From positions 89,929 to 153,928 of the forward strand of contig JAFVRG010000021.1 in NCBI GenBank assembly GCA_017504405.1: a stretch of 64,000 nucleotides of DNA, given 5' to 3'. The position numbers and the translations under genes were made by a program. How positions within the stretch are numbered: position 1 is the stretch's first letter; each line of letters begins with the position of its first letter. Shown here in pieces: positions 1-8,366 of this stretch. The notes under the pieces were generated by a model that saw only the letters and a program-made list of their open reading frames with translations, ran no database searches and was not told the DNA's origin. Source of the DNA: Clostridia bacterium. Its GTDB lineage: Bacteria > Bacillota > Clostridia > Oscillospirales > CAG-272.

Positions 1-309
1 ATCGGGGGCGTAAGCGTTTTTGAGGCGTGTTTCTGCACCTCCTGCTGTAACTATAAGTATATCAATGCTACCGAAGCGTGCAACAGCCTCGTCACGTGCT
101 CTCTCAACCTGTGCGTAATCGAGAACGTCCACCACGCATCCCATTACGTTGTCGGTGATTTCCTTAATTTTTTCAACACATTCATTGAGAGCCTTTTCGT
201 TAATATCGAGCAAAACCACATTTGCTCCCTCTTTTGCATAGCACTCTCCGCAAAGGTATCCAATTCCGGAAGCGCCTCCGGAAATAAATACAGTTTTATT
301 TGAAGCCAT
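1..309 (-). CDS. short-chain dehydrogenase/reductase (SDR), N-terminal part; 3' end lies beyond the left edge
   Basis: Hand translation of the reverse strand from the ATG at 307-309 gives MASNKTVFISGGASGIGYLCGECYAKEGANVVLLDINEKAL..., which carries the glycine-rich Rossmann motif of SDRs. A GGAGGA RBS lies just upstream. It is absent from the ORF track because it runs off the window. Confidence 0.8.
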   Translation of the reverse strand, partial: MASNKTVFISGGASGIGYLCGECYAKEGANVVLLDINEKALNECVEKIKEITDNVMGCVVDVLDYAQVERARDEAVARFGSIDILIVTAGGAETRLKNAYAPD

Positions 310-338
310 AATATCCTCCATTTTATTAGTTATAAAGT

Positions 339-1001
339 CTAAACAATTCTTACAAAACCGTTTGCATCAGGTAAGATAGAAAAGTCGTGCGCCAAAAGCA
401 TTTCGAAATCATTTGAGCCGTACTTCTCAACAAACCCTATCGCATTATCAAGTGAGAAATATGAGCCTGTCGGCAGACAATCTGTCAGATTTTTTCGAGT
501 GTAGCATTCATCACCGCAAAACACATAGTTTTTTTCTCCGTTACATGCAACAACGATTGACGAGCCGACGCTGTGTCCTGAAATTCTCACAGCTTTGATG
601 CCCTCCGCAATCTCACATTCATCATCAAAGAGCACCACACGGCAATCACTCGGAATGAATTTTCTGCACCCTGCATATTCCTCACGTTGAACGTAAAACG
701 TGGCAGATGTGAAATATACCGAAGCCTGTGCGTGGTCGTGGTGCGAGTGCGTAAGAATTACGTCGGTGATTTCCTCGGGCGAAAGTCCGAATCGAGATAG
801 AATAACCGACGGAGATTCAAAATATTTCATATCCCACCCGGGCATCGTGTCGCATCCTGCATCTATGAGAATACGTCTTTCTGCCGTTTCTATAAGATAT
901 ACGGTGAATGAAATATCATACCTATCGCTGTCACATGAGCCCGCAAATGCCATGCTGCTCGGTATAGTTGACTGACCGTATTTTAAGGCGGTTATTCTCA
1001 T
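339..1001 (-). CDS. MBL-fold metallo-hydrolase (lactonase-like)
   Basis: 220-aa ORF with the HSHHDH metal-binding motif (LTHSHHDHAQ). Its start overlaps the stop of the upstream gene (998-1001), indicating operon coupling. Confidence 0.85.
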   Translation of the reverse strand: MRITALKYGQSTIPSSMAFAGSCDSDRYDISFTVYLIETAERRILIDAGCDTMPGWDMKYFESPSVILSRFGLSPEEITDVILTHSHHDHAQASVYFTSATFYVQREEYAGCRKFIPSDCRVVLFDDECEIAEGIKAVRISGHSVGSSIVVACNGEKNYVFCGDECYTRKNLTDCLPTGSYFSLDNAIGFVEKYGSNDFEMLLAHDFSILPDANGFVRIV

Positions 1002-1981
1002 TTTACGGTAAGAACTACCTTACCGGCACTTCTACCGCTGTAAAGAAGGTCGTGTGCCGCCTCCGCCTGTTCAATAGGCAGTATCTCGTATATTGTGGGG
1101 CGTATTTCTCCACTCTCAACCTTGGGCCATATATCCTTAACAAGCTTTGCAAGTATCTCGCCCTTCATCTCGGGTGTTTTGCTCCTGAGGGTGCTGCCGA
1201 TAAGACGTATGTTTTTAACATACATAGTTCTCATATTTACAGGGGAAATATCTCCTGCAAGAGTAGCAATCATTATCCAACGGCAACCGTATGCAAGATG
1301 CGGGAAGCACTCGCCAACCCTCTCACTGCCAAGGCAGTCAATCGCAAGATTAAGGGGACGTCCCTCACTTGCCTCACGAGCCAAAACGTCAACAATGCTC
1401 TCCTTTGAGGTATCAACAACAACGTCGGCATTCAAATGCTTAATACTGTTTGCCATTTCCTCAGTAAGAACAGTTGTTATAACTCTCATTCCAAATGCCT
1501 TTGCCATCGGAATAATTACGCTGGCAAGTCCGCTGGCACCCGCGTGCATAAGGAAGTTATAGCCTGCCTTCGCTCCGCCCTCAATGAAAAGATTGAGATA
1601 TGCGGTCGCAAAAGCCTCGGGCAATGCTGCTGCCTCCTCCATAGAAATACCGGCCGGCTTCGGCATTACCATACATTCCTCAACTGCAACATATTCAGCA
1701 TATCCGCCGCCGCCAAGAAGCGCGCAAACCTCATCGCCTATATTAAATCTACCCTTCGATACTGCATCGGGTGACATATCGGCTATTACACCTGCAACCT
1801 CAAGACCGGGCCACTCAGGGCAACCGGGAGGGGGAGGATATGTACCCTCTCTCTGCATCAAATCTGCTCTGTTAACAGCCGCTGCGTGTACCTTGATTAA
1901 AACCTCGCCGTTTTTCATTACGGGGTTTTCAACGTCCTGCCATTTGAGACCTTTATCGGTCTGAATAACAATCGCCTTCAT
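998..1981 (-). CDS. NADPH:quinone oxidoreductase / zinc-type alcohol dehydrogenase (MDR) family
   Basis: MKAIVIQTDKGLKWQDVENPV...AAAVNRADLMQREGTYPPPPG...GAGSGLAS-like nucleotide motif. I moved the start to the internal ATG (M30 of the track ORF, codon 1979-1981), where family-typical sequence begins. Confidence 0.85.
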   Translation of the reverse strand: MKAIVIQTDKGLKWQDVENPVMKNGEVLIKVHAAAVNRADLMQREGTYPPPPGCPEWPGLEVAGVIADMSPDAVSKGRFNIGDEVCALLGGGGYAEYVAVEECMVMPKPAGISMEEAAALPEAFATAYLNLFIEGGAKAGYNFLMHAGASGLASVIIPMAKAFGMRVITTVLTEEMANSIKHLNADVVVDTSKESIVDVLAREASEGRPLNLAIDCLGSERVGECFPHLAYGCRWIMIATLAGDISPVNMRTMYVKNIRLIGSTLRSKTPEMKGEILAKLVKDIWPKVESGEIRPTIYEILPIEQAEAAHDLLYSGRSAGKVVLTVK

Positions 1982-2035
1982 ACTGTGTTCTCCTGTAAAT
2001 GTAATTTTAATATATGTATACTTAATTATACCATA

Positions 2036-2063
2036 TTGACATTTTATAAAAATATGGTATAAT
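2036..2063 (+). promoter_or_regulatory. sigma-A-type promoter for the AraC-family gene
   Basis: TTGACA (2036-2041), 16-nt spacer, TGgTATAAT extended -10 (2055-2063), about 40 nt upstream of the ATG at 2104. Confidence 0.45.
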
Positions 2064-2103
2064 ATCAAAAAAGAGAACTATTCTATCGCTTTTGAGGTGT
2101 AAT

Positions 2104-2907
2104 ATGAACACTATTGTTTCAGAATCACAGCTTTCACACTTTAATATAAGGCACTACCGACATCATGACGGATACAGATTTGATACCGTCAATGAGCCTC
2201 GTCCTTTGTATTCCCTTGCCTTGATAACTCACGGTGATGGGGAGCTTTTTGACGTTGACAATTCCACAACCGTATCGGTAACGGTTGGAGATTTATTGTT
2301 TATCCCTGTTTTTTCTAAGTATAAGTCGGTATGGAAAAATAACGCATCTTATACGTCAATTCATTTTTTGTTCGGTGACAAATCCTATTTCAACAGCAAC
2401 AATATTCTGAGAATTCAAAAAATAACCCCCGACAATAAAGAACGTATAAGGGAAATATTTGATTACCTCACTAATTTCAACAGCGCTTGCGTATCGCAAA
2501 GGTTAAAGGCTACCTCAATATTTTATGAGTTACTTGAAGTAGTAACGAGAAAAATAAGAAGGCGGCATTCTGTCACCTATGATAAAACAATAATTACAGT
2601 TATGAGATACGTACAAGAAAATTTCTCAAAAAAAATCACCGTTGAGGATTTGGCGTTAAGCGTTAATATGAGCCTATCGAGATTTTTCCCTTATTTTAAG
2701 AAAAAAGTAGGACTTACGCCCGTTGAATATATCAACAAATACAGGATTGAACAGGCATGCATTATGCTTATAAATTCGAGGGAAATGCCGATTGAGGAAA
2801 TCTCCGACAGAGTAGGCTTTGAATCTGCGGCATACTTCCGCAGGGTTTTCAAAAAGGCAATTAATCTAACACCCAAGCAATACCGCCAAAATCCCCCGAT
2901 TTTATAG
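2104..2907 (+). CDS. AraC family transcriptional regulator
   Basis: C-terminal double HTH (ITVEDLALSVNMSLSRFFPYFKKKVGLTPVEYINKYRIEQA...AYFRRVFKK). The track ORF begins at a TTG. The ATG at 2104 has a GAGGTG RBS 5 nt upstream. Confidence 0.85.
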   Translation: MNTIVSESQLSHFNIRHYRHHDGYRFDTVNEPRPLYSLALITHGDGELFDVDNSTTVSVTVGDLLFIPVFSKYKSVWKNNASYTSIHFLFGDKSYFNSNNILRIQKITPDNKERIREIFDYLTNFNSACVSQRLKATSIFYELLEVVTRKIRRRHSVTYDKTIITVMRYVQENFSKKITVEDLALSVNMSLSRFFPYFKKKVGLTPVEYINKYRIEQACIMLINSREMPIEEISDRVGFESAAYFRRVFKKAINLTPKQYRQNPPIL

Positions 2908-2916
2908 TAATACAAC

Positions 2917-2944
2917 AAAAAGGAGCGTTAGTGACGCTCCTTTT
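2917..2944. terminator. bidirectional hairpin terminator between convergent araC genes
   Basis: AAAAGGAGCG-ttagtga-CGCTCCTTTT with an A-run on one side and a T-run on the other. The right arm overlaps the last codons of the minus-strand gene. Confidence 0.5.
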
Positions 2945-3749
2945 GCTTATGTAGGGACGGCGGATATCCCGTTATGCGGCGGAAAACCGTGCTGAAATAG
3001 TTCTGATTGGAAAAGCCGAGGGTGTCCGATACCTCGGAAACGGCCATTCCCTGCTCGAGCATATTCATTGCCGCCGTTATCTTCAAATGATTAAAATAAT
3101 TCATAACACCCACGCCCGCATATCGGGAAAAGGTCTTTTTAAGGTTTATTTCGCTCATATTGCAAAGACGGGCGATTTCCGAAATGCTAAGGCTCTTATC
3201 AACGTTATTTGTGAGTATGTTAACAGCCATAGCATAGTTTTTTGCGGTTTTTGACTGAGATACAGACGAGTGCGAATATTTCTTTGATACCGTGCTGAGG
3301 ATATACCGTTCAAGGTCCTTAACCGCCCGCTGCCAATCGAGAGAATCAATATTTTTAATTGATTTAACGTCACCTGCAAAAATATTATAAGCATCCGATA
3401 TTTCTTTAAAAACGTTTACGGCTTCATCTGCATCTACATCAAATATTTTAGAAAAAAATTTCGGCATATTATCGGCGGCAAAGGTGAAGATTGCGATAGT
3501 TGGGCTGGTTAAATTTTCACTCCACAGTCGGTGAAATTCCATCGGCTCGTGTAAAATCGCCTGCCCTTTTTTTAGCAAAAATACATCCTTTCCTGCACAT
3601 ACGCCGATTTCTCCGTCCAAAACCACCACTATCTCCCAAAAATTATGATACTCACCGTCATAATTATAGTCGCTATCATATTTTCTGATAAACGCAGTAT
3701 ACAGAGTTTTAATGACAAAGCTCCCTTTTATATCAACGTAACCGTGCAT
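2928..3749 (-). CDS. AraC family transcriptional regulator
   Basis: 273 aa with a cupin-like N-terminus and a C-terminal AraC HTH (LSISEIARLCNMSEINLKKTFSRYAGVGVMNYFNHLKITAA...NYFSTVFRRITG). AGGAGA RBS upstream. Confidence 0.85.
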   Translation of the reverse strand: MHGYVDIKGSFVIKTLYTAFIRKYDSDYNYDGEYHNFWEIVVVLDGEIGVCAGKDVFLLKKGQAILHEPMEFHRLWSENLTSPTIAIFTFAADNMPKFFSKIFDVDADEAVNVFKEISDAYNIFAGDVKSIKNIDSLDWQRAVKDLERYILSTVSKKYSHSSVSQSKTAKNYAMAVNILTNNVDKSLSISEIARLCNMSEINLKKTFSRYAGVGVMNYFNHLKITAAMNMLEQGMAVSEVSDTLGFSNQNYFSTVFRRITGYPPSLHKQKERH

Positions 3750-3886
3750 AAAGCTATCTCCTGTTTTTTATACAAAATTATAGATTTTTTATATTTTTTC
3801 GTATATAAATTTGATTTTGTATATGATATGATAGTAGCATAGTAAGGTTTTTTTGTCAATACCCAATTACAAGAAAGGATAAAAAC

Positions 3887-5149
3887 ATGAAAAAACTAAC
3901 CGCTATTGTTATGGGCTACGGAATGAGGGGGCAGTCCTATTCTTCCTATGCGATTGATAATCCCGAAAAGCTCGAAATCGTTGCAGTTGCAGAGCCGGAA
4001 AAGAGCCGTAGGCTCTATGCTCAGCGCCGTCACAATTTATCCGAGGATATGCTCTTTGATGACTGGGAAAAGCTCGCCGAGCTACCCAAAATGGCTGATT
4101 TTGCTATCATATCTACTCAGGACAAAATGCACCTTGAGCCTGCGCTCGCCTGCATTGAAAAGGGCTATGACCTGCTTCTCGAAAAGCCTATGGCTCCTAC
4201 CGCCGAGGAATGTAAAATAATATACGAGGCGGCAGAGAAAAAGGGGGTCAAGGTTGTCGTTTGCCACGTTCTTCGATTTACTCCCTTCTGGTATAAATTA
4301 AAAGAACTACTTGACGAGGGGGCAATAGGTGAGGTAAGATCTATAATACATATGGAAAACGTCGGCAATATGCACTACTCTCATAGCTACGTCAGAGGAA
4401 ACTGGAGAAACACCGCCGAGTCCTCAGCAATGATACTTGCAAAGAGCTGTCACGACACCGATATAGTTCAATGGCTGCTCGGCAAGGATTGCAAAAAGGT
4501 ACAATCCTTCGGCTCATATTCCGTATTTACAAAAGAAAATCAACCGAAGGGTGCGCCCGACAGATGCCTTGACGGCTGTCCCTATATGGACTCCTGCCTA
4601 TACAACCCCGTAAAGTTTTACGTAGAAGACAAAGAAAACGGATGGAGAGATACCGTAGCCGATAAGGTTGACGCAACCGATGAGGAAATAACCGAGGCTC
4701 TGCGTACAGGTCCATACGGAAGATGTGTTTATGCCTGTGACAACGACGTTGTTGACCATCAGGTTGTAAATATGGAATTTGATGGCGGCGCAACCGTTTC
4801 CTTTACAATGAGCGCATTCAATAAGGGTGGCAGATTCATAAGAATTTTCGGAACAAAGGGCGAAATTGTAGCTTCACACGCGAATAGCGAAATAACCGTT
4901 TGCCCCTTCGGCAAGCCGAACTACGTTGCAGAAATAGATAAAATAGGCGAGAGCATCACCAGCGGACACGGCGGCGGAGATACGGGAATCATGGTTGACT
5001 CCGTTAAGTATTTCAATAACGAGCAGCCCAGTAAATCAGTATGCGACCTGCGCACGTCCTATCTAAATCACCTCATCTGCTTTGCGGCGGAAAAATCAAG
5101 AGCTGAGGATTCCGTTGTGGATTTAGATAAATTCTCAGAATCAGTTTAA
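3887..5149 (+). CDS. Gfo/Idh/MocA family oxidoreductase
   Basis: 420 aa. N-terminal Rossmann segment MKKLTAIVMGYGMRGQSY...EKPMAPT is typical of the family. RBS AAAGGA. Confidence 0.85.
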   Translation: MKKLTAIVMGYGMRGQSYSSYAIDNPEKLEIVAVAEPEKSRRLYAQRRHNLSEDMLFDDWEKLAELPKMADFAIISTQDKMHLEPALACIEKGYDLLLEKPMAPTAEECKIIYEAAEKKGVKVVVCHVLRFTPFWYKLKELLDEGAIGEVRSIIHMENVGNMHYSHSYVRGNWRNTAESSAMILAKSCHDTDIVQWLLGKDCKKVQSFGSYSVFTKENQPKGAPDRCLDGCPYMDSCLYNPVKFYVEDKENGWRDTVADKVDATDEEITEALRTGPYGRCVYACDNDVVDHQVVNMEFDGGATVSFTMSAFNKGGRFIRIFGTKGEIVASHANSEITVCPFGKPNYVAEIDKIGESITSGHGGGDTGIMVDSVKYFNNEQPSKSVCDLRTSYLNHLICFAAEKSRAEDSVVDLDKFSESV

Positions 5150-6689: not shown

Positions 6690-7048
6690 TTTTTCACCTC
6701 AGAGTTTAATATTTTTTGAATTTCCGCCCGTGTCAAGCCAAGGCTCTCCATTGAGCCGTAAAAATTATCAATCATTTCACTGATAGTTTGCATCTTAACC
6801 TTAGAAATAATATCGGTATCTCCCGTTACAAATTTACCGTTTGTTCTCTCGGTATAGATAAGTCCCATTCCTTCAAGCTCGGCGAGCGCTCGCAAAACGG
6901 TATTCGGGTTTACCTCATACTGCAATGAAAGCTCTCTAACCGACGGAAGTTTGTCGTTAGGACAATATTCACGGCTGATTATCTTAGTTTTAATATGCTC
7001 TATTATTTGAAGATAAATAGGTGTATCATTACTAAAGCTATATCCCAT
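6686..7048 (-). CDS. GntR family (YtrA-like) transcriptional regulator
   Basis: 120 aa. Winged-HTH segment KLPSVRELSLQYEVNPNTVLRALAELEGMGLIYTERTNGKFV. It is the first gene of a gntR-ABC ATPase-permease operon, the arrangement typical of the YtrA subfamily. Confidence 0.85.
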   Translation of the reverse strand: MGYSFSNDTPIYLQIIEHIKTKIISREYCPNDKLPSVRELSLQYEVNPNTVLRALAELEGMGLIYTERTNGKFVTGDTDIISKVKMQTISEMIDNFYGSMESLGLTRAEIQKILNSEVKK

Positions 7049-7059
7049 ATTCCCCTCAC

Positions 7060-7108
7060 TGTATTACTTAACCAATACAATGATACACCATTCTTTTTCG
7101 TTTGTCAA
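7060..7108 (-). promoter_or_regulatory. promoter of the gntR operon plus a candidate operator
   Basis: On the minus strand: TTGACA (7103-7108), 17-nt spacer, TATCAT (7080-7085). This is followed immediately by the inverted repeat TGTATT-N8-AATACA (7060-7079) between the -10 and the RBS. Confidence 0.45.
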
Positions 7109-7177
7109 GACCTTTTTGTGTTTTTCTAAAAAAGTGTTGATTTTCATTATATTGTATTGAGCGTATTCTAACTTAAA

Positions 7178-7410
7178 ATCAAGGCAAAATCCTTGTATAT
7201 CATCAATTTCGAGAGAAATTGTATATCATCAACACAAAGTGTTGTATAGACGCTCGCAGGCTCGCTATTCCGTCGCTTCGCTCCTTACATCAAGCCGCAG
7301 GAGAATCCAGCCCCAGAGGGGCTGATGAGATACAAGGGCGGCTCGCCGCCCTTGCATGATATGCGCCGCACTTCGTGCGTCGATGATATGCCAAGCCTGC
7401 GGCTTGGATA
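7178..7410. repeat. hairpin/10-mer array, copy A (partly degenerate)
   Basis: GTATATCATC at 7195-7204 and 7221-7230, with a degenerate third copy at 7244-7253. Reverse-complement-like copies are GATGAGATAC 7324-7333, CATGATATGC 7355-7364 and GATGATATGC 7382-7391. Spacers are perfect hairpins at 7180-7195, 7205-7220, 7231-7243, 7308-7324, 7333-7354, 7367-7379 and 7391-7407. Confidence 0.7.
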
Positions 7411-7453
7411 AAAAAATACTGCAGAAAATATGTCATTTTCTGCAGTGTTTTTT
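7409..7453 (-). terminator. intrinsic terminator downstream of the orphan ORF (bidirectional shape)
   Basis: CTGCAGAAAAT-atgtc-ATTTTCTGCAG flanked by an A-run and a T-run, about 80 nt after the stop at 7536. Confidence 0.6.
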
Positions 7454-7535
7454 GCGAAAGAGCGACCAAAAGGTGCGTAAAGTAGGGTAAGAACGACTAA
7501 AAGTACACCACATGTGCCGCGAGATAAATTGGAAT

Positions 7536-7907
7536 TTATATTTCTGAGTAATAATGGCGCACCAACACCCAACTTTTCTTTTTCTTCTCTGTTTTATGCT
7601 CAATTCCGAAATCACTGCAACCCAACAGAACAGCTATATGAACCCTTTTATCTTCGCTATTGATGTCTTGAATTAAACTTATTACATTACAATTATCTTC
7701 GTGAAAATGACCAATTTCAAATAATTTACTTTTGCGACGTGAATACAAAACGGTAGTTTCACGATTATCAACAAGAAAACGCAAAAAAATGCCGCCCAAA
7801 TCCCATGAAAATTCATTATCACTTATTATTTCCACCGCTCCCTTTAATTTGGCAGAGTTTACAAATTCCATCACAGCTAAAACTTCTTCTTTATTGTCTA
7901 CACTCAT
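7536..7907 (-). CDS. hypothetical protein, 123 aa, no family recognised
   Basis: ATG-initiated ORF with its own promoter (see 7951-7979), a GGAG 12 nt upstream, and a terminator. It is markedly AT-rich compared with its neighbours. Confidence 0.55.
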   Translation of the reverse strand: MSVDNKEEVLAVMEFVNSAKLKGAVEIISDNEFSWDLGGIFLRFLVDNRETTVLYSRRKSKLFEIGHFHEDNCNVISLIQDINSEDKRVHIAVLLGCSDFGIEHKTEKKKKSWVLVRHYYSEI

Positions 7908-7950
7908 ATTTATTATTTACTCCACTAAATTCTTATTTATCAGTGAGTTT

Positions 7951-7979
7951 ATTATATCACACTATCGTAAATAAATCAA
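7951..7979 (-). promoter_or_regulatory. sigma-A-type promoter of the orphan ORF
   Basis: Minus strand: TTGATT (7974-7979), 17-nt spacer, TGaTATAAT (7951-7959). The -35 overlaps the first hairpin arm of array B. Confidence 0.5.
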
Positions 7980-8147
7980 GGCTAAACCTTGTATATCATC
8001 CGCAACTTGTTGCGGTATATCATCAAAACGCAGTTTTGTATATCATCATTGCGAAAGCGATGCAACCTGCGGTTGATGATATACGCCTGCGGCGATGATA
8101 TCCAACCTTAAGGGCTGATGATATACCATTGCTATCGCAATGGATAC
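7975..8147. repeat. hairpin/10-mer array, copy B (clean copy)
   Basis: Three perfect GTATATCATC (7991-8000, 8015-8024, 8038-8047). Then GATGATATAC (8075-8084, 8117-8126) and GATGATATCC (8094-8103). Spacers are hairpins at 7977-7991, 8001-8014, 8025-8037, 8047-8062, 8063-8075, 8085-8093 and 8126-8143. Confidence 0.8.
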
Positions 8148-8177
8148 AAAAAACGACAGGCAACACCTGTCGTTTTT
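8147..8177 (-). terminator. intrinsic terminator of tRNA-Leu
   Basis: ACGACAGG-caaca-CCTGTCG with a T-run on the minus strand, immediately after the tRNA CCA end. Confidence 0.7.
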
Positions 8178-8261
8178 TGGTGCGGGCGACAGGAATTGAA
8201 CCTGCACATCGGAGATACCAGATCCTAAGTCTGGCGCGTCTGCCAATTCCGCCACGCCCGC
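8178..8261 (-). tRNA. tRNA-Leu (anticodon UAG), class II with long variable arm, CCA encoded
   Basis: The reverse complement reads GCGGGCGTGGCGGAATTGGCAGACGCGCCAGACTTAGGATCTGGTATCTCCGATGTGCAGGTTCAATTCCTGTCGCCCGCACCA. Acceptor GCGGGCG/CGCCCGC, anticodon stem CCAGA/TCTGG with loop CTTAGGA, and a GGTTCAATTCC T-loop. Confidence 0.95.
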
Positions 8262-8366
8262 ATATTGGATTGATTTCGGGCAGGATTGCCCGTGCGCTAT
8301 CAGCGCCACATTATATTAACATAAAAATGCCGAAAAGTCAATGCTTTTCGGCAAAATTGTTAAGAG

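Follow-up and report, generated by a model that had tools for sequence, protein, structure and literature searches.

Multi-copy, extragenic mosaics of palindromes with short conserved motifs are known from Enterobacteria and Pseudomonas as REP and BIME sequences. Their units occur in both orientations and at the 3' ends of transcription units, they are thought to act as folded single-stranded DNA (ssDNA), and REPINs are mobilised by RAYT, a Y1 HUH transposase. The attC site of integrons is likewise read by its structure, folds as ssDNA and accompanies small one-gene cassettes with unrelated cargo, which are stacked at one entry with the newest adjoining it. Islets at the 3' ends of tRNA and tmRNA genes carry attP arm-type repeats and grow by tandem accretion: insertion takes place exactly at the 3' end, several units stand in tandem, and copies of the 3' end precede the displaced older units. 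In attP regions, the arm-type sites are laid out in direct and inverted order.

Most of these traits, the RAYT gene excepted, recur in the array family described here, the ssDNA fold and the insertion being putative. Array A lies in a window of 64,000 nucleotides, the whole stretch of DNA that was analysed, and is one of about eight copies in the source genome, all of them intergenic. To our judgement, the chances are evenly balanced that array A represents, in decayed form, a modular palindromic DNA element, here called a hairpin ladder, which heads small promoter-bearing gene cassettes and would serve as a putative folded-ssDNA site. As part of the same explanation, and with the same even confidence, we propose that, in gut Clostridia of the Oscillospirales type, ladder-headed cassettes accumulate directly behind the CCA ends of genes for tRNAs and tmRNA. 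The genes neighbouring this stack of units are those of a HAD hydrolase and a GntR/ABC operon, and its parts are the following.

8178-8261, minus strand: tRNA-Leu gene, with the terminator heading array B directly after the CCA (joint feature 8144-8261)
7977-8145, minus strand: array B, an intact copy, with anchor hairpin at 8127-8143, last hairpin (hp0) at 7977-7991, plus-strand words at 7991, 8015 and 8038, and minus-strand words at 8075, 8094 and 8117
7951-7979, minus strand: cassette promoter TTGATT-17-TGnTATAAT, its -35 box in the hp0 flank of array B
7536-7907, minus strand: cassette ORF P0001, 123 amino acids, between arrays B and A
7455-7515, minus strand: conserved cassette tail GGTGTACTTTTAGTCGTTCTTACCC..CTTTCGCAA, lying behind the P0001 stop codon and ahead of the array A terminator
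7409-7455, minus strand: intrinsic terminator heading array A in the tRNA direction, stem at 7418-7446
7178-7410: array A
7391-7407: anchor hairpin T of array A, CCAAGCC-tgc-GGCTTGG, preceded on the minus strand by TTTATCC
7309-7391, minus strand: tRNA-proximal half of array A, three words with GC-rich hairpins
7382-7391, minus strand: word GCATATCATC
7365-7381: GC-rich hairpin GCCGCAC-ttc-GTGCGTC
7355-7364, minus strand: word GCATATCATG
7334-7353: GC-rich hairpin AAGGGCGG-ctcg-CCGCCCTT
7324-7333, minus strand: word GTATCTCATC
7309-7323: GC-rich hairpin AGCCCC-aga-GGGGCT
7292-7308: centre box AAGCCGCAGG-AGAATCC
7249-7287: 39-nt insert splitting the innermost word of the promoter-proximal half
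7195-7248, plus strand: promoter-proximal half, with perfect GTATATCATC words at 7195-7204 and 7221-7230
7231-7243: AT-rich hairpin AACAC-aaa-GTGTT
7205-7220: AT-rich hairpin AATTTC-gaga-GAAATT
7180-7195: hp0 of array A, CAAGG-caaaat-CCTTG (feature 7177-7195, minus strand)
7108-7080: the GntR operon's own promoter

Read in the tRNA direction, a copy begins with the tRNA CCA end, an intrinsic terminator and the anchor hairpin, followed by three units of GTATATCATC plus hairpin, a centre box complementary to the anchor, three units of GATGATATAC plus hairpin, and the last hairpin, beyond which lies a variable ORF; the flank of the last hairpin provides the -35 box of a strong promoter. Spacers measure 9-23 nt and stems 3-9 bp. 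The consensus of 39 arrays begins with TTATCCAAG and ends with CTTGATT, and the two element ends are alike (ATCC-AAGSC..GSCTTG-GTATATCATC and ATC-AAGGC..GCCTTG-TATATCATC). With at most one mismatch, the word is found 17 times in the window, compared with 3.6 +/- 1.9 times in shuffles, and 10 of the 17 occurrences fall into arrays A and B.

All six hairpins that a preliminary description had listed for array A are present where it placed them, as are the two perfect words and the three imperfect reverse complements. Its view of the centre (7244-7307) as degenerate has to be replaced: a third word is split into GTATA (7244-7248) and CATC (7288-7291) by the 39-nt insert and is followed by the conserved centre box, without decay. 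The insert is a copy of a small repeat, of which the same genome holds a near-identical copy (C17, near position 368), and two further arrays carry related inserts in the loops of their anchor hairpins. The plus-strand centre box sequence AAGCCGCAGG is perfectly complementary to CCTGCGGCTT of the anchor hairpin. An A-run and a T-run border the array A terminator, which is therefore bidirectional; terminators of this type are also found at loci C8, L013, L029 and L103 and stand behind the tmRNA genes of relatives. At the other end, the hp0 flank (7177-7182) carries the minus-strand sequence TTGATT, which intact copies use as their -35 box; in array A, no good -10 element follows it.

Several features separate ladders from the described systems. 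Conservation is reversed relative to REP/BIME sequences: ladders keep the linker word across genera and leave the palindromes free, whereas REPs, imperfect palindromes of 20-40 nt that are conserved within a genome, do the opposite. Ladders lack a GTAG/GTGG head and combine 46 hairpin arms with the 10-nt GTATATCATC as the conserved part; their layout is fixed, with 3+3 units plus anchor hairpin, centre box, terminator and promoter; they stand strictly behind a tRNA CCA, and no RAYT gene is flanked by ladder repeats. In contrast to attC, which is one bulged hairpin, a ladder consists of many hairpins, and its 39-array consensus shows no R''/R' core boxes (RYYYAAC ... GTTRRRY). Integron cassettes are promoterless, whereas ladder cassettes carry their own promoter and terminator; among the neighbouring genes examined beside the ladder stack there is neither an integron integrase nor an attI, and a tRNA or tmRNA stands at the head. 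Different from the tRNA/tmRNA islets, ladder units comprise only 0.2-1.2 kb with one small ORF or none, lack an integrase, and have their repeats joined by covarying hairpins. CRISPR arrays, with direct repeats of 23-50 nt and unique non-palindromic spacers, differ as well, because ladder repeats are 10 nt long and invert in mid-array and the spacers are palindromes from a shared stock; cas genes were not found among the neighbouring genes examined. Set beside a MITE of a DDE transposon, whose near-identical copies have terminal inverted repeats and target-site duplications, ladders have ends that are alike and copies that vary module by module, with no definable target duplication. Compared with IS200/IS605 ends, whose subterminal hairpins are both on the same strand and flank tnpA and/or tnpB, the active forms of the ladder halves are on opposite strands, and tnpA loci do not contain the word.

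The preliminary description had proposed that pairing is kept while the sequence changes, and this holds far above chance in the source genome and family-wide. End-anchored hairpins occupy 86.5% of 126 distinct spacers (6.5% in shuffles), with 46 distinct perfectly paired arms. When 39 arrays are aligned by MAFFT without fitting, 97.8% of the cells pair, compared with 79% after shuffling and 28-50% after sliding; the covariation score is 0.451 (0.115 shuffled, 0.045-0.081 slid), and 21 of 42 pairs show double changes. Anchor and centre box match at 10/10 positions in 17 arrays and at 9/10 in 6 more, and they covary in four sequence types. Between AACAC..GTGTT and AATAC..GTATT stands the G.T intermediate AATAC..GTGTT, and such intermediates point to stepwise compensation. 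The idea of compensatory change at corresponding positions of arrays A and B thus stands in part: pairing is kept and G.T intermediates occur, but most differences between the two reflect different modules from the shared stock. That A and B are not recent duplicates is supported, and the difference in composition between the halves, one AT-rich and the other GC-rich, is genuine and seen family-wide. Both strands of both arrays fold far better than shuffles, with z from -5.6 to -9.1 under RNA and DNA parameters. Perfect hairpins (stem >=5 bp) reach 20.3/kb in the eight arrays of the source genome compared with 3.3/kb genome-wide and 8.4/kb in other non-ORF DNA, a background that still includes four related ladders with other words in the source genome.

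The two halves of a ladder are mirror images, with G-N-A loops and G.T wobbles on opposite strands. On the strand that reads GTATATCATC, GNA triloops outnumber TNC triloops by 37 to 1, GNNA tetraloops outnumber TNNC tetraloops by 18 to 0, and single stem mismatches are G.T in 19 cases and A.C in 3. When only the tRNA-sense strand is considered, the tRNA-proximal half contains 23 GN(N)A and 2 TN(N)C loops, and the other half 0 and 22. Preference for G-N-A triloops would be a sign of DNA, as known from DNA mini-hairpins; the G.T tolerance suits RNA at least as well as DNA and counts against folding as DNA. Both the strong strand-specific loop preference and the long-range covariation of the box suggest that a defined folded form is under selection.

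This form could also be that of a structured non-coding RNA, either an sRNA of ~230 nt that starts from the promoter-proximal side and is ended by the bidirectional terminator, or a read-through tRNA 3' trailer. The strong plus-strand terminator that ends each array, the very stable predicted folds, and the covariation with G.U-type wobbles would agree with such an RNA, as would a weak match of the tRNA-proximal half of array B to Gut-1 (RF01706), likewise an orphan motif from gut metagenomes. This match reached only 19.1 bits against a gathering score of 50 and was absent from 28 other array loci (E<=1 or gathering score), and Gut-1 was therefore rejected. No array in the window or at the 28 further loci (10 searched at E<=1, 18 at the gathering score) matched an Rfam family at threshold, the only passes being tRNA, tmRNA and T-box. 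Moreover, in one half of any single transcript, the loops and words under selection would appear as their complements, and the single folded transcript implied by the preliminary description is contradicted by the mirror symmetry of loops and wobbles. Half arrays occur, and a sister class of ladders has its halves in opposite polarity, both of which argue against an RNA. All promoter-like sites at 7000-8350 lie on the minus strand, with no plus-strand promoter found. Contigs from four rumen metatranscriptomes extend over the ORF and the tRNA, and arrays A and B show depths of about 0-7, except for the promoter-proximal end of array B with up to 33 in one run, although the depth of contigs reflects expression poorly. 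We consider the RNA explanation quite unlikely. Mirror symmetry, the lack of a second-strand promoter, the scant RNA coverage and the lack of an Rfam match therefore favour a folded-DNA site.

The ladder is built from units of the fixed word GTATATCATC and a free-sequence hairpin closed by a G-N-A or G-N-N-A loop, three per half, with the halves on opposite strands and facing each other. Once the DNA is single-stranded, e.g. on the lagging-strand template, the hairpins would snap shut and bring the words side by side, creating a compact platform that may be read by a putative trans-acting, single-strand-specific DNA enzyme or binding protein. The mirror arrangement would offer one active half whichever strand is exposed. 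Such a site would follow an unusual reading rule, a linear word beside a hairpin of any sequence, three times per strand, and would point to a new ssDNA-binding or -cutting activity in a large group of gut and rumen bacteria that are uncultured. Hot spots of accessory genes at tRNA flanks in these genomes, and the breaking of assemblies there, would be explained as well.

The arrays are linked to tRNA ends. They are found 50-62 nt from many different tRNAs and from tmRNA, and in 39 of 46 oriented arrays a CCA immediately precedes the terminator, belonging to an intact tRNA in 27 cases and to a CCA-ending 3' fragment in 12. A 16-nt tRNA-Leu fragment is present at C16:21950, and copies of the tmRNA end at L090 and L103; array A itself is preceded by a tail ..TTTCGCAA in place of a tRNA 3' end copy. 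The promoter TTGATT-17-TGnTATAAT is shared across cassette heads, and the tail behind P0001 also follows unrelated ORFs (C8:47919-47939, L018 and L095). The unit consisting of terminator, array B, promoter, P0001 and tail adjoins tRNA-Leu and would be the newest, and array A with its own terminator would be an older head pushed downstream, which has since gained word mismatches and the 39-nt insert.

Three direct and three inverted words beside a tRNA-end core also resemble attP arm-type sites. The words might accordingly be double-stranded protein-binding sites, iteron-like or arm-type sites of an integrase directed at tRNA 3' ends or operators of the cassette promoter, possibly with the four-helix-bundle protein as regulator, and the hairpins would be incidental spacers. 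The tRNA 3' fragments before displaced arrays, the adjoining promoter and the large serine recombinase genes that end just before two arrays (C8 and C16) are consistent with this proposal. It is nevertheless unlikely in our view, because words are spaced at anything from 19 to >30 bp, without helical phasing, and because the 46 paired arms, the strand-specific G-N-A loops and the bias of G.T over A.C are left unexplained.

The units are putatively mobile. Neither an empty site nor an excision circle or target duplication was found, as synteny within the genus is too scrambled: nearly all congeners have a rearranged gene order downstream of the HAD gene, no match to the GntR DNA was found within the genus, and a metagenome scan with GntR retrieved only relatives of <=53% identity. 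Joints in metagenome contigs were uninformative, as they represent cross-matches between array copies. P0001 belongs to no Pfam family, and no record of the exact protein was found. Four further operon ends carry homologues of it but no GTATATCATC arrays; therefore the ORF also travels without an array head, and P0001 was rejected as a marker of array-borne cassettes.

The array is always located between a terminator and a promoter, and hp0 with its T-rich run scores terminator-like. Both features would suit a passive insulator, in which hairpin stack and terminator shield the following promoter from a very strongly transcribed tRNA gene or take up supercoiling, with no role in mobility; absorption of supercoiling has been proposed for BIMEs that bind gyrase. 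However, neither an invariant 10-base word nor the mirror strand bias is needed for insulation, only 4 of the 31 tRNA genes of the source genome have an array, and at the single-copy tmRNA locus most congeners are without one (present in only about 5/30). Insulation as the sole function is thus very unlikely.

The ladder grammar is patchily distributed: within the order, 48 of 401 genomes and 25 of 178 genera carry it, and it recurs in >119 contigs from MAGs of animal-gut Clostridia. Hairpin modules such as CGCAA-CTTG-TTGCG, AAAAC/AACAC-GNA-G.., AATTCC-GNA-GGAATT and GCC-GNA-GGC are shared across many genera, identical modules are common to different families, module order is shuffled between copies, and in some contigs the arrays are expanded to 9-16 units. 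A selfish palindromic repeat with neither host function nor dedicated enzyme, which spreads by homologous recombination between copies after DNA uptake and keeps its hairpins by intrastrand repair, could produce this pattern. We assign very little probability to this explanation, as the 37:1 loop preference, the covarying long-range box and the conservation of the word across at least 25 genera speak against it.

If the ladder is read as folded DNA, a protein partner may exist, and several candidates were considered. The cassettes and their immediate flanks encode neither a transposase nor a recombinase. A Y1 transposase was rejected, as the two PF01797 genes of the source genome are ordinary IS200-type genes with no word nearby. 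RAYT-like genes of 250 amino acids are present in 5 of 18 array-rich and 0 of 18 array-free genomes; this is a weak correlation only, and at eight RAYT-like loci in five array-rich relatives no array adjoins, the sole array seen being about 4.3 kb away. The downstream ORFs are singletons apart from three small groups, and the one large cargo group is a PF05635 four-helix-bundle gene (13 of about 60). Its product, the commonest of the cassettes, is homologous to Avd (PMC10053308). PF05635 genes accompany ladders, a likeness to diversity-generating retroelements (DGRs) with Avd. A reverse transcriptase acting with an Avd-like protein was nonetheless rejected, since RVT_1 (PF00078) is absent from the source genome and from 15/18 array-rich genomes, and no template/variable repeat pair is present. 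Retrohoming of DGRs depends on a DNA hairpin that is strand-specific and has a G..A loop. The source genome contains no close relative of the GTATATCATC-linked four-helix-bundle gene (best 48% identity); arrays A and B would therefore be orphans in case this protein is the partner. One four-helix-bundle paralogue per word is not a strict code, because unrelated proteins share ACTTCAC and ATATCAC; similar four-helix-bundle proteins tend to share words.

More tentatively, and with less than even confidence, ladders may represent an undescribed, integrase-free one-gene cassette system that enters tRNA and tmRNA CCA ends via a multi-hairpin ssDNA site, with the word (core RYWTCAY) plus any G-N-A-capped hairpin as its rule and an Avd-like PF05635 gene as its signature. 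In that case, PF05635 would mark elements that colonise stable-RNA genes; members of this family are also located inside 23S rRNA intervening sequences. A folded-DNA site would likewise explain what the widespread orphan PF05635 ('23S rRNA intervening sequence') proteins travel with.

The ladder family is uncatalogued, being absent from Rfam and from the searchable literature; a search on the word, on the four-helix-bundle/IVS protein and on hairpin, tRNA and cassette returned nothing relevant, and phage and plasmid collections gave no match to array B. Even on a modest reading, the family merits a name and a model, as it is abundant and reaches depths in the thousands in rumen metagenomes. 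In gut metagenomes, the depth is 100-3900 over the arrays compared with about 6-17 over the ORF, and contigs break at the arrays.

Arrays A and B, both on contig C1, are two of about eight arrays in the draft genome (1.79 Mb, 46.6% G+C) to which the window belongs as C1:89929-153928; one more lies on contig C8, three lie on contig C16, and half arrays are found on contigs C10 and C20. Oriented by the neighbouring tRNA, which in the window means reading the minus strand, an array has the following organization:

tRNA-CCA
A-run, terminator hairpin and T-run
ATCC and the anchor hairpin, AAGYCGCAGRCTT or ATTGCGAAAGCAAT
Three times GTATATCATC plus a GC-rich hairpin
GTATTYC and a 10-nt centre box
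Three times GATGATATAC plus an AT-rich hairpin
Last hairpin AAGGC..GCCTT, with the 3' flank TTGATT as the -35 box of an extended -10 promoter (TGnTATAAT)
Variable ORF

With about even chances of being right, we infer that the array is a folded-DNA recognition site heading gene cassettes at tRNA ends. Expanded arrays of 7-16 consecutive word and hairpin units also exist (L152:17-387, L138:827-1031 and L148:609-761).

The minus-strand order in the window is tRNA-Leu, terminator, array B, promoter, the cassette ORF P0001, tail, terminator, array A and the GntR/ABC operon, with these positions:

8178-8261, minus strand, tRNA-Leu gene
7977-8143, array B, 570 bp from array A and directly 3' of tRNA-Leu
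7979-7951, minus strand, promoter behind array B
7907-7536, minus strand, ORF P0001
7515-7455, minus strand, conserved 60-nt cassette tail
7178-7410, array A
7108-7080, minus strand, the GntR/ABC operon's own promoter

With at most one mismatch, GTATATCATC occurs 17 times in the window compared with 3.6 +/- 1.9 times in shuffles, and 10 of the 17 occurrences fall in arrays A and B. All hairpins and words that the preliminary description listed for array A are found within 7178-7410. Array A is more worn than array B, with one or two mismatches in three of its words. Its centre, previously called degenerate, is really a word split by an insertion, not a deletion, relative to array B: the parts GTATA (7244-7248) and CATC (7288-7291) of the innermost word are separated by a 39-nt insert, of which contig C17 carries a near-identical copy, and are followed by an intact centre box (7292-7301, AAGCCGCAGG), the exact complement of CCTGCGGCTT in the anchor hairpin. 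A mini-repeat of about 40 nt, GACGCTCGCAnGCTCGCTATTCCGTCGCTYCGCTCCTTA, is present at 7249-7287 inside this word; copies or related inserts lie at C17:~368, C10:~5470 and C16:~15260, the related ones in the anchor hairpin loops of two other arrays.

Array pairing is preserved beyond chance. A word-N(6-40)-word pattern matched 48 of 401 genomes and 25 of 178 genera of the order, while its reversed control matched only once, in one genome. Among 126 distinct spacers of at most 24 nt, 86.5% have an end-anchored stem of at least 3 bp (shuffled mean 6.5%, maximum 14%) and 65% one of at least 5 bp (shuffled mean 0.7%), and 46 different perfectly paired arms are present. To assess covariation, 39 complete arrays taken from many MAGs were aligned with plain MAFFT, unfitted to any structure; RNAalifold gave a consensus of 42 pairs, 21 of them with compensatory double changes. 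In this alignment 97.8% of cells are paired (79.2% shuffled, 28-50% slid), and the covariation score is 0.451 versus 0.115 in shuffles, none of 500 of which reached it, and 0.045-0.081 when slid. The best-scoring helices belong to the promoter-proximal hairpins and to one tRNA-proximal hairpin, together with a long-range helix in which the 5' arm and loop of the anchor pair with the centre box; the box matches the anchor at 10 of 10 positions in 17 arrays and at 9 of 10 in six more, in four sequence types.

Many of the double changes are module exchanges inherited by many copies, because different genera share modules (CGCAACTTGTTGCG, AAAAC/AACAC-GNA-G.., AATTCC-GNA-GGAATT and GCC-GNA-GGC). 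One-pair neighbours and G.T intermediates are also seen (AACAC/GTGTT, AATAC/GTGTT, AATAC/GTATT), and therefore stepwise compensation occurs too. The preliminary proposal of selection on secondary structure was right in substance, but exchange of modules accounts for much of the variation, and what folds is more probably DNA than RNA.

Four lines of evidence disfavour one functional transcript spanning the array. On the strand reading GTATATCATC, triloops are GNA in 37 cases and TNC in one, tetraloops GNNA in 18 and TNNC in none, and single stem mismatches G.T in 19 and A.C in three. On the tRNA-sense strand, GN(N)A loops outnumber TN(N)C loops by 23 to 2 in the tRNA-proximal half, whereas the promoter-proximal half has 0 and 22. 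The halves are mirror images, which counts against one functional transcript, and this symmetry is maintained rather than the product of a fresh inverted duplication, since the module sets of the two halves differ, one being GC-rich and the other AT-rich. Also counting against such a transcript are the half arrays on C10 and C20 and the sister ladders L025, L032 and one on C14, which have their halves in opposite polarity. The terminator stops transcription along the tRNA-sense strand, and the plus strand has no promoter-like site between 7000 and 8350. Contigs from four bovine metatranscriptomes cover P0001 and the tRNA; the depth of about 0-7 over arrays A and B, rising to 33 at the promoter-proximal end of B in one run, is weak evidence on array transcription because contig depth measures expression poorly.

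C-GNA-G triloops are a hallmark of unusually stable DNA mini-hairpins, while structured RNAs favour tetraloops. Words are spaced anywhere between 19 and over 30 bp apart, a variation that counts against phased duplex binding and has no bearing if the hairpins are extruded. Each half would act on its own strand, folded as single-stranded DNA, and the mirror layout may make one active half available whichever strand is exposed.

In this genome four arrays lie behind tRNAs, namely tRNA-Leu (twice), tRNA-Val and tRNA-Arg. In relatives they follow genes for Thr, Arg, Ser, Tyr, Asn, Ala, Pro, Trp, Gln, Glu, Cys and Val tRNAs and tmRNA, always on the 3' side and 50-62 nt away. The T-run and ATCC together give the same orientation as the tRNA in all 21 cases compared. 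CCA immediately precedes the terminator in 39 of the 46 oriented arrays with enough flank; 27 of these 39 have intact tRNAs and the others 3' fragments or mimics. Terminator types accompany the arrays, independent of the particular tRNA. At the single-copy tmRNA locus, compared in 30 congeners, three have an array directly behind the gene, two have one behind a further insert bounded by a tmRNA-end copy, one has a ladder with another word and one a ladder of opposite polarity, while the remaining congeners, including this genome, have no array. The array element is therefore accessory, and newer insertions are nearest the tRNA. Inserts of 200-400 nt directly behind tmRNA in seven congeners (L088, L090, L096, L098, L111, L112, L115) contain a reverse-complement tRNA-like 3' half, TGGT....GGAATCGAAC; in at least L090 and L103 such inserts close with a repeated tmRNA 3' end, and they appear to be a different small element with the same entry point.

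The ORFs downstream of arrays form 46 groups, 43 of them singletons, and the sole large group is a four-helix-bundle gene of PF05635 (23S_rRNA_IVP, Avd-like) found at 13 of about 60 arrays. Unrelated cassettes have a common 3' tail: the 60-nt tail of the window contains two copies of CTTTTRGTCGYTCTT, is also present behind unrelated ORFs (C8:47919-47939, L018 and L095), and reaches several times the ORF depth in gut metagenomes. Homologues of P0001 (123 aa) form about 80 clusters, most of them on contigs below 2 kb. On long contigs they occupy the ends of four unrelated operons, following RNase E/G, dUTPase, UDG and a 278-aa gene, and keep the same 5' UTR without GTATATCATC arrays; a mini-ladder built on the word GTGATAT is present at one of these loci.

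An exact three-word pattern has matches in more than 119 contigs, all from MAGs (labelled Clostridia, Eubacteriales, Acutalibacteraceae, Oscillospiraceae, 'Christensenella sp. UBA', Ca. Avispirillum and Ca. Ruminococcus equi); hosts, where record titles name one, are cattle, goat, sheep, deer, buffalo and yak, other isolates being simply "fecal". The stretch occurs in cattle and goat gut metagenome runs, in which contigs end at the arrays and summed depth is 100-3900 for the arrays versus about 6-17 for the ORF. The phage and plasmid collections searched gave no match, the arrays match no Rfam family, and the searchable literature yielded no description of the element. By analogy, it would work most like REP/BIME mosaics and integron attC sites, both single-stranded DNA sites read by structure, the latter marking stacked cassettes, although it fails defining features of both. 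Unlike REP/BIME, the arrays lack both a conserved palindrome headed by GTAG and a RAYT flanked by the repeats; unlike attC, they have no core boxes or adjacent integrase, and the cassettes are not promoterless.

As to a partner protein, the genome has two IS200-like copies of PF01797 (Y1 transposase), with no word near either. A RAYT-like type of 250 aa, present in 5 of 18 array-rich genomes and in none of 18 array-free ones, does not adjoin arrays. Of the array-rich genomes 17 of 18 have PF05635, as do 10 of 18 'array-free' genomes, and each of the four PF05635 genes of this genome lies directly downstream of a ladder with a different word (ATATCAC, ATATCGC, ATTCATT or ATTTCAT), outside the window:

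C14:33690-33950
C19:~78150-78430
C10:~172000-172250
C9:~65340-65700

Two of these ladders are behind tRNA genes or tRNA-like ends. Most of 24 further PF05635 loci in relatives have repeated words upstream (ACTTCAC, GCATCAC, ACATCAC, AATTCAT, ATATCAT), and a core RYWTCAY is common to most PF05635-linked words; protein subfamily and word correlate only loosely. An Avd-plus-reverse-transcriptase mechanism is ruled out because this genome and 15 of 18 carriers lack reverse transcriptase. None of the cassettes codes for a recombinase. Two large serine recombinase genes (C8:48800-49383 and C16:22430-23341, the latter with Recombinase, Zn_ribbon_recom and DUF4368 domains) stop right in front of a terminator and array, with a pseudo-tmRNA 3' end intervening on C8, and are probably the ends of larger integrated elements using the same tRNA/tmRNA ends.
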